Shown: positions 32,502-36,631 of the stretch, piece after piece
How positions within the stretch are numbered: position 1 is the stretch's first letter
How the letters are laid out: every line of letters begins with the position of its first letter
NCBI GenBank assembly: GCA_033549025.1
Contig: JAWSUS010000022.1
Coordinates: 1-56,756, forward strand
Source: Desulfuromonadales bacterium
Lineage (GTDB): Bacteria > Desulfobacterota > Desulfuromonadia > Desulfuromonadales > SZUA-540
Length of the DNA: 56,756 bases
Reading direction: 5' to 3'
Notes under the pieces: model-generated
The model's input: only the letters and a program-made list of their open reading frames with translations
What the model was told of the DNA's origin: nothing
Database searches by the model: none
Position numbers and translations under genes: made by a program

Positions 32502-33110
32502 TTAAGATTTCGCGCGCGACTCCGCCTGAGCGGCCGGGGTTCTCACCGCATCCCAACAGGCCTTGATCGTTTCCTCGATCAAGTGGTCGTCCAACGGCAA
32601 AAAGCCCAGCACATGGTCGCGGGCCACAGACAGAATGGGACCGAAAGCCAGAGCCAGCAGGATGGACAGCGGCAGGTCTTTCAGCAGCTTTCTTGACACA
32701 CCTTCGTCAAAAAGATGCAGGCAGACATCCCGTTCCTGCCGGCGCACCAACAGACGCTCCCGACGAAAGGCGACGCCATAGGGGGAATTGTGAAACTGTT
32801 CAACATAGCGGAAATCGAGGGGGTTTTCGGTAAAATATTTCAGCAGAGCCTTAAGCAGGTGGAAAAAACGTTCCCGAAAAGGCTGATTCACATCATAACC
32901 GGCGGTGATTACCGGATTGACGCGGTTTTCCACCTCCTGGTAGAGCTCGGTGATCAACACATCCTTGTTCGCAAAATAACGATAGATCGTGCCGGCTCCC
33001 ACCTTGGCCTGCTCGGCGATCAGGGCCATGGGTGTGCCGTGGTATCCCCGTTCGGCGATCAGCTCAAGGGCGGCCCTGACGATCTCTTCCCGTTTGTCTG
33101 TCTTGGTCAT
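32502..33110 (-). CDS. TetR/AcrR family regulator
   Basis: IVRAALELIAERGY...VGAGTIYRYFANKD HTH. Confidence 0.93.
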   Translation of the reverse strand: MTKTDKREEIVRAALELIAERGYHGTPMALIAEQAKVGAGTIYRYFANKDVLITELYQEVENRVNPVITAGYDVNQPFRERFFHLLKALLKYFTENPLDFRYVEQFHNSPYGVAFRRERLLVRRQERDVCLHLFDEGVSRKLLKDLPLSILLALAFGPILSVARDHVLGFLPLDDHLIEETIKACWDAVRTPAAQAESRAKS

Positions 33111-33124
33111 GTCCTGTCCTTGAT

Positions 33125-33146
33125 ACGGAATGAATAATCATTCCGT
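33125..33146. promoter_or_regulatory. Probable TetR operator
   Basis: Perfect 9-bp inverted repeat ACGGAATGA-N4-TCATTCCGT between a minus-strand TATAAA (33147-33152) and the tetR start. Confidence 0.7.
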
Positions 33147-33235
33147 TTTATAGAAAAGGCGAGAAAACGTCCAGCATTTTTTACGGCCCAAGATAAAAAG
33201 ATTAAAAGGATGGCTTCTCTGTTAGCACAAAAGTG

Positions 33236-33270
33236 AAAAGGCAGCGGATATAATCACCCGCCGCCTTTTT
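33236..33270. terminator. Terminator downstream of purE
   Basis: AAAAGGCAGCGG...CCGCCGCCTTTTT imperfect stem flanked by A/T tracts. Confidence 0.6.
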
Positions 33271-33301
33271 CGTCAAGCATTCTGAAAACTCTGACTTAAG
33301 C

Positions 33302-33838
33302 TCAGGCTTTTTTGTCACTCAGACGGGCCAGGGCCTCATCGGCGGTCTGATCGTAGCGGGCCCGCTCTTTTTCGGCCATATCCTTCAGTCCCTGGGCGAT
33401 GACCGGATATTTGAGGGCCAGGATACGGGCCGCCATGATAGCCGCGTTACGGGAACCGTCGATGGCCACCGTCGCCACCGGCACGCCCGGGGGCATCTGC
33501 ACGGTAGAGAGAAGGCTGTCCCAGCCGGAGAGAGGACCGTTGCCCAGGGGCAGGCCAATGACCGGCAGCTGGGTGTGACCGGCGATCACGCCGGCCAGAT
33601 GGGCGGCCACACCGGCACAGCCGATAAGGACCTCAACGCCCTCGGCGTGGGCGCGATCGAGGTAAGCGAAAACCTTGTCGGGGGTGCGGTGGGCCGAAGC
33701 GACGACAATTTCGCTGCGAATGCCCAGCTCATCCAGGGTATCCCGCACCTTGACCACCTTGGGCAGATCATTGGGGCTGCCGGTAAGAATGCCGACGAGA
33801 ACCTTGTCCTGGGGTGAAACCGTTCCTGCTTCCGTCAC
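33302..33838 (-). CDS. purE: N5-CAIR mutase / AIR carboxylase PurE
   Basis: [43 protein letters not shown] 33838 after AAAGGAG. Confidence 0.9.
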
Positions 33839-33948
33839 TGTACTATCTCCTTTGTTGAGGGGAGGCCGGCGAGGCCGCCACGACATAGTTTCTAAAAATC
33901 CACCGGTGTGTAAATCTCGGCTAAAGAGGTCTTTGTGCTGCTGAAGGG

Positions 33949-34004
33949 AAAAACAAAAGACCTTTACTCACATCACTTCGAGTGGTGGTGTGAATAAAGG
34001 TCTT
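33949..34004 (-). terminator. Riboswitch expression-platform terminator
   Basis: Long stem AAGACCTTTATTCACA...TGTGAGTAAAGGTCTT followed by TTGTTTTT; 5' arm overlaps the aptamer 3' strand. Confidence 0.8.
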
Positions 34005-34105
34005 GCCAATTCCGATCAAAGATCGCAACCCCGCGTCCGGGTGACTGGCACCGTATTGACGAACCGCGGGCCGGCTCTTTTCCAGCCGGAAGCTACTCCC
34101 CTTTA
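33995..34105 (-). ncRNA. yybP-ykoY (Mn2+-sensing) riboswitch aptamer
   Basis: Minus strand TAAAGGGGAGTAGC ... CGTCAATACGG ... GGCAAGACCTTTA; P1 TAAAGG/CCTTTA, P2 CCGGCT/AGCCGG. Confidence 0.85.
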
Positions 34106-34114
34106 AAGGCAAAA

Positions 34115-34143
34115 ATATTATTGGACGTGCGGGCCCATGTCAA
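34115..34143 (-). promoter_or_regulatory. Sigma70 promoter for the riboswitch leader
   Basis: TTGACA-N17-TAATAT ending ~10 nt before the aptamer. Confidence 0.75.
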
Positions 34144-34172
34144 CAGAAATAGGCACCTATGCAACGACTTCT

Positions 34173-34619
34173 TTACCCTATGGTTACCTGCCGGGTCTCT
34201 TCCCACAGCCCATGCAGATTGCAGAACTCGCGGGCCTTGAGGGTGGCCGGTCCCTCCAGAGTGATAAAAAAGGTGACCTTGGGAGCATTCTGGCCTGGCG
34301 TTAACGTGGCCCTGCCGGCCGGCTTGCCGTCGACGAACAGCTCCACATAGTCGATATAATGTTCCTTGACCATGGGATGGATGACTTCCCCCACCGTGAT
34401 CGTCACCGGGAAGGGCACTCCCTTGGTCAGGCGCTCGGGCACCTCGATTACCGGCACATGCTTCTGTTCGGACAAGGTTTTGTTGGCCGGATCCTTGGCC
34501 GTGAAAACATGCATCTCCGTCTCAGCCGCCTGCACCTGGGGAACGCCCATAAACAGACCGGCCGCCAGAACCGCCGATCCCGTCAGCAGAAACTCTCTTC
34601 GCTTCACCTCGCTACCCAT
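34173..34619 (-). CDS. Tat-exported superoxide reductase (neelaredoxin-type, 1Fe SOR)
   Basis: KRREFLL twin-arginine signal with VQA cleavage site; KHVP, HPMVKEHYI, FCNLHG iron ligands. Confidence 0.88.
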   Translation of the reverse strand: MGSEVKRREFLLTGSAVLAAGLFMGVPQVQAAETEMHVFTAKDPANKTLSEQKHVPVIEVPERLTKGVPFPVTITVGEVIHPMVKEHYIDYVELFVDGKPAGRATLTPGQNAPKVTFFITLEGPATLKAREFCNLHGLWEETRQVTIG

Positions 34620-34767
34620 ATGCGTGCCTCCCTGTTTGGATATTTCCAGTACTATAGCCGGCTTTGGGCTTCTCGCAAGGGGGAGGTAAAGCGGCCCGGG
34701 GCGATTTCACTTGCTAGCCCCCTGGAAGATATTATATATTAAAAAGCCTATCTAACGGAGGAGCCTT

Positions 34768-34914
34768 ATGGAAATACTCAGTATCCTCGGCATTGTCGCC
34801 ATCTGGTACGTCGTCAACAAATGGGTGCTACCCAAAATGGGCGTCCAGACCTGACTGTCCGACAGTTGCAGCCTTCCGGTCCGGAAGGAAGAAGAAAAAA
34901 AAGAAAACCAATAA
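34768..34914 (+). CDS. Candidate small membrane selenoprotein (48 aa with Sec; 28 aa if TGA is a stop); not in ORF track
   Basis: GGAGGAG RBS; MEILSILGIVAIWYVVNKWVLPKMGVQT-(TGA 34852-34854)-LSDSCSLPVRKEEEKKENQ-TAA; SECIS-like hairpin and downstream terminator. Confidence 0.65.
34872..34888 (+). promoter_or_regulatory. Candidate bacterial SECIS hairpin
   Basis: CCTTCCG-GTC-CGGAAGG, 7-bp stem, G first in the loop, loop starts 25 nt after the UGA. Confidence 0.55.
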
Positions 34915-34931
34915 TTCTCGTATCTGTGCAT

Positions 34932-34973
34932 TCAGCCCCCCGGACAGACCATTCCGGCGGGGCTGATTTTTTT
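34932..34973 (+). terminator. Intrinsic terminator of the small gene
   Basis: TCAGCCCCCCGGA...TCCGGCGGGGCTGA followed by T7. Confidence 0.8.
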
Positions 34974-34974
34974 G

Positions 34975-35012
34975 AAAACAAAAGGGCCACCCCGGTTGGG
35001 CGGCCCTTTTGT
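34975..35012 (-). terminator. Intrinsic terminator of the octaheme cytochrome gene
   Basis: ACAAAAGGGCC...GGCCCTTTTGT stem with minus-strand U-tract. Confidence 0.75.
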
Positions 35013-35035
35013 CTGCTTGGTGTTCCTGATCGGTC

Positions 35036-36418
35036 TTATTTGCTCCGGGACCACTTGGAATTGACCATGGGATCCCCTTTGTAGCCCAGCTCTTTCCAGT
35101 TCAGGCGGCCGTTGTCGCCATGACAGTCGAGGCAGCTGAGGGCTTCGCTGGCTGGAGAGACCATGTGGTTGAGGCGCCAGTACATGCGGGTCTCGATAAA
35201 GTCGACCTCGCCGCTGAAGGGGAGTCCCGCCGCCTTCATGCCGATTTCGGCCGAGCGCTTCCAGTCGAAAGTGTGCCAGTAGCCGTCATCGCCGATCTGA
35301 TGGACGGCCAGCAGGGTTTTATTGACGGGGTCGAAAGCCTGTTTGCCGCCCATCACCTTGAAGGGATAGATGCGGGCCTTTTTGTCCTTGATGGTCGAGG
35401 TCGGCCCGGCCACCATCAGCACCTTGTTTGGGTCCTTGATCTTTTGACCGCGCACATGGTTGATGGCCTCGCCCGTTTCAAACCAGGCATACTCGGGCTG
35501 TACCATTTTGCCGTATTTCATGTCGCCCTTTTTCTTCACGTACAGGGGCAGACCGTATTTATCCTTGACGACGTCGCGGCTGTCATCGCCGGCGGTCGAC
35601 CAGTCCCACCAGATTTTGGTCGGAATCTCTTTGGCGTAGTAAGGGATGTGGCAGGTCTGGCAGGCGATGTTGGCCGCGTGGTCATTGAGACGGCTTTCCT
35701 GATGGACTGCCCCAGCATGGCAGTCTTCACAGCGGAGCTGGCTGGCGGCACCCGGCGAGACGCCGAGGGAATTGCCGGGAATAACATGGTTCTTGGTCAC
35801 ATGGCAACTCTGGCAGGCGAAATCCTGTCCGTCGAGGCCCATATGGATGTCCGTCTTGCTTTCCGGATAGGACATGGAGGAATCGAGGTCGCCGTGCTTG
35901 ACGGCATCGCCGCCGCCGCCGTAAAAGTGGCACGCACCGCAGTTATCACGCACAGGCGCGCCGACATTTTGGGCAATCCGCAGCAGATTGAGGCCTTCGG
36001 CGGGCCAGCCGGCATCGCCCTTGGCGTAAGTGCCTGTCGTATCGTGACAGACGAGACAGTCTACGCGGGTCTTGTCGTTGAAATCGAAACTGTCATCCTC
36101 GTAGCCATAACCGGCGTGGCAGCGGTTGCATGAAGTCTCGTTGCTTTTGATCTGGGTGCAGTAGTTGTTGAGCACATTGCGCTTGCCGGCGGCTACCGTT
36201 TTGCCGGCTATTTCCTGCTCCAGCGCCCAGGTCCAGTGGCTGGTCTTCATAAAATCGTCGGCCTGCTGTTCATGGCATTCCAGGCAGACCTTGGTGACCT
36301 CGGGTCCCGATTTGAAATCCCCCTGGACATATTCGCTGTGGGGATTGGCGGCCAGGACCGTTCCTCCCCATAAACCCAGAATCAGAAATGACACCAAAAC
36401 CCTTTCCAACTGTCGCAT
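35036..36418 (-). CDS. Octaheme c-type cytochrome, tetrathionate reductase (OTR) family
   Basis: Signal peptide, 8 CxxCH motifs counted, GPEVTKVCLECH, GGGGDAVKHGDLDSS, MYWRLNHMV; GGAGG RBS. Confidence 0.9.
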   Translation of the reverse strand: MRQLERVLVSFLILGLWGGTVLAANPHSEYVQGDFKSGPEVTKVCLECHEQQADDFMKTSHWTWALEQEIAGKTVAAGKRNVLNNYCTQIKSNETSCNRCHAGYGYEDDSFDFNDKTRVDCLVCHDTTGTYAKGDAGWPAEGLNLLRIAQNVGAPVRDNCGACHFYGGGGDAVKHGDLDSSMSYPESKTDIHMGLDGQDFACQSCHVTKNHVIPGNSLGVSPGAASQLRCEDCHAGAVHQESRLNDHAANIACQTCHIPYYAKEIPTKIWWDWSTAGDDSRDVVKDKYGLPLYVKKKGDMKYGKMVQPEYAWFETGEAINHVRGQKIKDPNKVLMVAGPTSTIKDKKARIYPFKVMGGKQAFDPVNKTLLAVHQIGDDGYWHTFDWKRSAEIGMKAAGLPFSGEVDFIETRMYWRLNHMVSPASEALSCLDCHGDNGRLNWKELGYKGDPMVNSKWSRSK

Positions 36419-36467
36419 TCCTCGACCTCCTTGTAATGTTACGAATGATGGGAACAGGCTAAACCAA

Positions 36468-36483
36468 AGCAAATTAAATGCCA
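36468..36483 (-). promoter_or_regulatory. Sigma54 (-24/-12) promoter
   Basis: TGGCATTTAATTTGCT, GG-N10-GC, 50 bp upstream of the OTR start. Confidence 0.7.
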
Positions 36484-36631
36484 TTTTTCCTGAATAGATT
36501 GTTCGATTACTGGAAACATGAGGTCAGTCGGTTAGCGCGATGGGGTTCCGTCGGGCAGCCCAGGGGTTCGATCGATGGGCGCCAAATAACTCAGGGTACG
36601 CTAAATAGCGAAGAAGCGAAGGGAGAAACGG

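Follow-up and report, generated by a model that had tools for sequence, protein, structure and literature searches.

A short gene for a membrane-anchored protein of a Desulfuromonadales bacterium as a member of a predicted, uncharacterised selenoprotein family

The 48-codon reading frame at positions 34768-34914 of the window, i.e., the whole 56,756-nt stretch of DNA analysed here, is confirmed at the level of sequence comparison as a real selenoprotein gene, in which UGA is read as selenocysteine (Sec) at residue 29. The frame had been put forward as a candidate selenoprotein in an initial annotation made from the sequence alone; that reading is supported, and every refutation test named with it was run, none turning out against it. 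The prediction is already in print under a working label, and the gene is a member of a predicted, uncharacterised family, which is therefore not a new discovery. What is new here is the breadth of the family, the contrast in selenocysteine insertion sequence (SECIS) hairpins between its Sec and Cys forms and a lead from its gene neighbourhoods.

The gene and its elements

Checking of the sequence found the ribosome-binding site, the ATG, the TGA, the Cys codon and the open frame down to the TAA where they had first been placed, together with a promoter that had been overlooked. The elements of the locus are as follows.

34711-34740 (+): sigma70-type promoter, with TTGCTA at 34711-34716, 18 nt, and TATATT at 34735-34740; sequence scan
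34757-34763 (+): Shine-Dalgarno sequence GGAGGAG; sequence
34768-34914 (+): 48-codon selenoprotein gene with Sec29 and Cys34 (U-x4-C), ATG start at 34768, TAA end at 34912-34914, intervening frame open; sequence and homologs
34771-34836 (+): single membrane helix, residues 2-23; AlphaFold2 and Kyte-Doolittle
34852-34854 (+): in-frame TGA, codon 29, as selenocysteine U29; homolog conservation and Cys replacements
34867-34869 (+): partner Cys34 (TGC); Cys at +5 in homologs
34872-34888 (+): bacterial SECIS apical hairpin, 7-bp stem CCTTCCG/CGGAAGG, loop GUC; folding, covariation and homologs
34932-34973 (+): intrinsic terminator after the TAA, stem 34932-34966 and T7 at 34967-34973; folding

The terminator, described at the outset as lying just past the TAA, is indeed found there and folds at -25.8 kcal/mol (z -4.8), a value equalled by none of 200 shuffles, despite which a simple terminator scan did not list it. 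With its own promoter and its own terminator, the selenoprotein gene is monocistronic in the window, flanked by a divergent desulfoferrodoxin-domain gene (34173-34619, minus strand) and a convergent octaheme cytochrome gene (35036-36484, minus strand). Metatranscriptome contigs cover the gene in two of three runs of one study (34730-34909 and 34782-35232); these were left out as evidence because contigs reveal neither strand nor level and may stem from carried-over DNA.

At the order level, 67 of 114 upstream regions carry a TATATTGA-like word, and in most of those 67 the TTG(C/A)...TATATT spacing recurs at -30 to -37 from the start, while GGAG/GAGG-like words lie upstream of most homolog starts. 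The -10 box of the window promoter is overlapped by an AT-rich quasi-palindrome (34733-34754), for which the consensus TATATATTGAAATTCAAATATA was built from 53 regions upstream of homologs. Scanning of the bacterium's own genome with this consensus returned 34 AT-rich matches and no clear regulon. The best other matches on both strands precede a TetR-like gene (G000:C4:120078) and an apparent outer-membrane efflux operon (C33:3274), and a weaker one precedes a HesB-like reading ending in G-F-G-TGA (C25, near 13650), probably another selenoprotein.

Several features of the surroundings deserve mention in their own right. The product of 34173-34619 has a desulfoferrodoxin ferrous-iron domain only, after a twin-arginine-like signal (KRREFL), and is possibly an exported superoxide reductase-like protein. 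The octaheme c-type cytochrome encoded at 35036-36484 belongs to the tetrathionate reductase family and scores above the cut-off for TIGR04315; a second strong hairpin (34978-35012) probably terminates its gene. A long, structured-looking leader (33890-34170) lies 5' of purE (33302-33886, minus strand). Rfam models gave five matches over 33000-36600, all far from the gathering score.

Conservation across the in-frame UGA

The family is widespread in the order and in the phylum, and frequent among bacteria of the sulfur cycle. At E<=1, the read-through protein found matches in 174 of the 201 order genomes; nine are weaker than 0.001, which leaves 165 of 201. Each of the order matches among those listed (150 of 223) contains one TGA. 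A profile of 55 sequences matched 138 of 301 genomes of the phylum, with the TGA inside 138 of 142 matches; the other four stop short of the codon, and the two of these that were fetched do have the TGA. A scan of genome contigs confirmed 356 relatives, of which 80 were kept, mostly titled Desulfuromonadales. A single-sequence protein search gave no match, the profile being required to find protein homologs; there is no paralog in the own genome and no match to the family among plasmids. Solved structures gave eight weak matches (E>=0.11), all to the same unrelated membrane helix.

Examination of 210 homolog loci yielded 181 distinct ones, and all 181 have the TGA, one codon off the motif anchor in 6 of the 210. 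The Sec codon position is never TAA or TAG, whereas the true stops are mixed (TAA 79, TAG 52 and TGA 48; n=179). A TAA or TAG at this codon was the outcome named beforehand as contrary to the selenoprotein reading, and it occurs in none of the 181. The downstream x4-C segment and the hairpin were likewise checked and are both kept across homologs, with the bias that the loci were found with queries including the downstream part, which favours seeing that part conserved. The Cys stands at +5 in 162 of the 181 distinct loci, at +6 in 10 and at +7 to +10 in 3, while 6 Sec forms are without Cys within 12 residues. The Cys+5 codon is TGC in 102 loci and TGT in 60, Ser+2 is encoded by TCN as well as AGY, and Leu-Pro at +7/+8 is kept with synonymous variation; such codon variation indicates coding selection beyond the UGA. 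In one family (f24; L066-L070), the protein is one residue shorter before Sec and reads G-U-G-P-x-x-C, with the hairpin unchanged.

The SECIS hairpin and the Cys forms

The 7-bp hairpin with a G-first loop 25 nt past the UGA, reported from the first inspection, is present at 34872-34888; the G that opens the loop, at 34879, is the 25th base after the UGA, i.e., the spacer is 24 nt. In a 2026 review, the bSECIS model is given as a loop of 3-9 nt, a stem of 4-16 bp, a G within loop positions 1-2, a spacing of 16-37 nt and an MFE <= -7.5 (PMC13188914). The window hairpin falls inside all of these published limits, with its GUC loop, 7 bp, 24 nt and -9.0 to -10.3 kcal/mol. Taken alone, it is modest against shuffles (z -1.5, matched by 18 of 200), but it stands above chance when set against synonymous recodings, of which one in 100 was equally stable.

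It also stands above chance among homologs. In an alignment of 59 sequences, 83.6% of the stem cells are paired, versus 47-63% when the stem is slid, with 26 compensatory cells, although the shuffle control for this covariation is inflated by the relatedness of the 59 sequences; the unpaired rows, judged by eye, are mostly from one subfamily with its hairpin in a shifted register. In 160 of 180 loci there is a hairpin that fits the model and reaches -4 kcal/mol or better, with a mean of -8.1 versus -2.2 for synonymous recodings. The best control is the contrast between Sec and Cys forms in metagenomes, where 80 fetched loci gave 66 distinct ones (two were without the motif and the remainder were duplicates): the hairpin is found in 26 of 28 TGA forms versus 12 of 38 Cys forms, with means of -10.5 and -2.8, respectively. 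The hairpin tracks the TGA rather than the protein.

The existence of homologs with Cys at the TGA position, a further check proposed at the start, is borne out. Among the 150 cluster representatives listed (of 999), 104 have Cys at the Sec site, 102 of these with a second Cys at +5, while 25 stop at the site and 13 have Trp there; in the metagenome loci, TGC or TGT occupies the site in 38 of the 66 distinct loci. An extra tail Cys is found in many Cys forms. The expectation that pipelines would truncate the protein also proved right, since among the 120 database proteins listed (of 621), 66 stop at the TGA, 45 have Cys, 6 have Trp supplied by gene callers and 1 has Arg, with two further Cys forms that the pattern overlooked. 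Database names are 'hypothetical protein' or none. A lead only is provided by an Atlas search with a Cys form, which returned one unnamed cluster at 0.88 with 123 members, whose phylum is assigned for five members only, most commonly Planctomycetota. Two individual forms stand apart. L263, a Desulfuromonadales-like Cys form, retains the hairpin at the same spacing, as if Sec had recently been replaced by Cys and the SECIS left behind as a relic, and P0237 is a Cys form fused to a thioredoxin domain, possibly a frameshift or read-through artefact.

Sec machinery

The own genome (3.39 Mb, 100% complete) encodes selA, selB, selD and tRNA-Sec, each above its curated cut-off, so that the complete selA/selB/selC/selD set that the initial annotation had asked to be confirmed is present; its selD itself has an in-frame TGA. 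Among the gene-positive genomes of the phylum, 8 of 138 are without a selA match, and selB and tRNA-Sec are found in all eight.

The genomes without a selA match at E<=0.001 are G208, G287, G321, G250, G315, G339, G348, G474 and G244; among these nine, tRNA-Sec is present in 9 and selB in 8, five are 93-100% complete, and a genus (g83) has a selA match in 0 of 4 genomes. These genomes may have gaps in their assemblies, a strongly diverged SelA or a route to Sec-tRNA of the archaeal type. Two selB genes occur in G208, G321 and G339, and two tRNA-Sec-like genes in G208 and G339, doublings reminiscent of selB*/selC*.

Relation to described selenoprotein families

Table S3 of Peng 2016 has a row 'Unknown (Geobacter lovleyi)' with five organisms, given as a name and counts without sequence (PMC5029168). 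The label and a shared senior author suggest that this row is the window family. The accessible part of a 2025 listing contains six entries of the family and gives no function; all six have, by eye, an N-terminal membrane segment and L-P-[RK]-x-G-[VI]-x-T-U-[LM]-x3-C as in the window protein, and one reads identical to locus L015, itself 69% identical to the window protein. As far as these sources extend, no sequence difference separates the labelled family from that of the window, the breadth found here being larger (138 of 301 phylum genomes, and many Cys forms). The passages searched in main texts, including that of Peng 2016 (PMC5029168), do not mention the family. The family is not named in the 119-family catalogue that forms Table 1 of the 2026 review (PMC13188914), and none of the Pfam/NCBIfam models given there matches it; the passages searched in a 2022 review (PMC9312934) have no 'lovleyi', and those of the Haft and Gwadz preprint say nothing on the family. 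No paper on its function was found in library searches, which miss most subscription journals. None of the 55 Sec forms or 21 Cys forms tested against NCBIfam comes near any cut-off, and against Pfam the 55 Sec forms give only weak membrane-helix matches.

Likeness to other selenoproteins is partial. Those of the thioredoxin fold with UxxC/CxxU (Trx, Grx, UXX-star, SaoT) share a Sec with a nearby Cys and an inferred redox role, but the window protein has x4 spacing, a single helix without beta-sheet in the model and no Pfam/NCBIfam match. The reading as a thioredoxin-fold oxidoreductase was rejected on the U-x4-C spacing and the one-helix AlphaFold2 model. The small modelled bacterial selenoproteins KCU-star (NF033934), dual-CXXC (NF041197), TsoA (NF045695) and SaoC (NF040734), which Table 1 of PMC13188914 lists, are like the window protein in being short, overlooked by pipelines and mostly without described function, but in NCBIfam release 20 their models are hit by no family member at E<=1. 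With the eukaryotic SELENOK and SELENOS there is analogy only, the window Sec standing 6 residues past the helix and leaving 19 residues to the C-terminus, and without a Pfam match. Those two are single-pass membrane proteins with Sec in a disordered cytosolic tail, next to the C-terminus.

Protein anatomy and topology

AlphaFold2 predicts one helix at residues 2-23, with a pLDDT of 85-91 over residues 1-20 and a tail of low confidence; overall, pLDDT is 69.8 and pTM 0.39, and the model is uninformative on the U-C geometry. The 19-residue Kyte-Doolittle maximum is 1.91, at residues 3-21. The conserved segment W-x-L-P-[RK]-x-G-[VI]-x-T-U-x4-C is followed by a disordered charged tail. Lys and Arg amount to 0.24 in the first five residues, which are net acidic, versus 4.6 around U; by the positive-inside rule, the acidic N-terminus and the K/R around Sec would therefore place the U-x4-C segment in the cytoplasm. 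A lipobox has the consensus [LVI][ASTVI][GAS]C after a basic n-region; a bacterial lipoprotein was rejected in view of the acidic N-terminus, the V-Q-T before U and the missing lipobox.

Gene neighbourhoods

No constant neighbour gene exists across the order, phylum and metagenome loci. Within the own order, 50 of 108 loci have a rubrerythrin, desulfoferrodoxin or Usp gene no more than two called genes away, versus 1.1% in a control of 2503 gene gaps of the own genome that under-detects (it found one thioredoxin); desulfoferrodoxin is near the selenoprotein gene in 11 of the 108, and thiol/sulfur neighbours in only 4. Elsewhere, thiol/sulfur genes occur within the same distance in 23 of 60 loci from the phylum and in 25 of 61 from metagenomes (control 2.0%), figures to be read with neighbour classes fixed after the data had been seen, query proteins drawn from the same loci, loci that are kin and some labels resting on BLAST against picks from the loci themselves. 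These genes encode thioredoxin (6 of 60 and 6 of 61 loci), MBL-rhodanese fusions, rhodanese, SQR-like proteins, CoA-disulfide reductase, DUF302, DsrE, YeeE-like, CMD, OsmC, DsbD-like and ArsR proteins. The MBL-fold/rhodanese fusion is directly upstream (about 30 nt) in six metagenome loci and two genes off in a seventh, and SQR-like or CoA-disulfide reductase genes lie downstream of some homologs. Cys forms are most often accompanied by a zf-HC2 anti-sigma gene (18 of 36) and by one resembling cytochrome bd subunit I (10 of 36). The ArsR proteins adjoining homologs reach 42-57 bits with the BigR model, far short of its cut-off of 155.

At a single locus (L296:2336-2995), a TIGR02187-like protein disulfide oxidoreductase is encoded directly upstream in two parts, the break probably marking a Sec codon; L296 may hold a two-selenoprotein operon.

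Possible function and rival explanations

The best guess, ranked first though tentative, is that the family provides a Sec/Cys redox or persulfide pair tethered to the membrane at its cytoplasmic face, preferred because relatives often adjoin persulfide and thiol-redox genes. The protein would cross the membrane once, with its acidic N-terminus outside and W-x-L-P...U-x4-C at the cytoplasmic face, as the positive-inside rule suggests. Going by the gene neighbourhood, Sec29 may act as the reactive nucleophile and Cys34 as the resolving thiol, the pair cycling between selenol/thiol and selenylsulfide or persulfide states. It might thereby accept or hand on sulfane sulfur or other oxidising equivalents at the membrane, be reset by thioredoxin or CoA-disulfide reductase and serve a reactive-sulfur and thiol-stress response. 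Against this explanation stand the inconstant neighbours, the few thiol/sulfur neighbours in the own order, the equal frequency of zf-HC2 anti-sigma and bd subunit I-like genes, the low BigR scores of the ArsR neighbours, the Sec forms without Cys and a U-x4-C spacing that differs from the CxxC of thioredoxin-type enzymes. A wider formulation is doubtful: the family would be a minimal carrier or sensor of persulfide, a Sec/Cys pair tethered to the membrane without a fold, and a widespread, so far overlooked component of sulfane-sulfur handling. It would act alongside thioredoxin, SQR-like enzymes and persulfide dioxygenase-rhodanese, both in Desulfobacterota that reduce sulfur or sulfate and in Planctomycetota-like anaerobes, and would rank among the commonest selenoproteins of the phylum.

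Gene neighbours also speak for other roles. ArsR/SmtB, MerR, cation-efflux, Nramp and TolC/HlyD efflux genes adjoin some homologs and, together with the additional tail Cys of many Cys forms, are consistent with a role as chaperone, sink or efflux partner, the U/C pair binding a soft metal or metalloid (Cu, Hg, Zn, As) at the inner membrane face. This reading, ranked second, is rather unlikely, as metal genes are rarer than thiol/sulfur genes among the neighbours, no P-type ATPase or Mer operon recurs, and ArsR proteins can sense sulfane sulfur too. A redox-sensing regulatory or accessory small membrane protein, whose U/C switch would tune either signalling (ECF sigma/zf-HC2 anti-sigma or a histidine kinase) or a complex in the membrane (bd-like oxidase or RND pump), could explain why 19 of 61 metagenome loci adjoin a zf-HC2 anti-sigma gene and 12 of 61 a bd subunit I-like gene, why a sensor kinase/response regulator pair lies upstream at about 30 loci of the order, and why the juxtamembrane W-x-L-P-x-x-G, which resembles an interaction surface, is conserved. 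Ranked third, it nonetheless has a low probability: the partners depend on lineage, the gene is monocistronic in the window, and a place 3' of an ECF/anti-sigma pair fits a regulated target equally well. It is very improbable that the UGA is a true stop closing a 28-aa membrane peptide, or that an overlapping 87-aa ORF from 34821 is the real gene. The 66 listed database homologs that end at this codon agree with a stop, but they are automatic gene calls, Cys forms read straight through, and a site never TAA or TAG in 181 loci contrasts with the mixed true stops; some truncated 28-aa product is to be expected because UGA recoding is never complete. The overlapping ORF was rejected, since no more than 18 of 179 loci have its ATG and the frame stays open for at least 60 codons in 18.

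Significance

Recognition of this family amounts to an annotation correction at scale, since pipelines miss, or cut to 28-29 aa, a selenoprotein that occurs in 165 of the 201 order genomes sampled and in 138 of 301 from the phylum. The family has no HMM and is absent from the current catalogue table (PMC13188914). The matched Sec and Cys forms constitute a clean natural control for SECIS models. Moreover, with 48 residues whose sole conserved chemistry is a membrane-adjacent U-x4-C, the protein offers a cheap, synthesisable test of selenium function without an enzyme fold.
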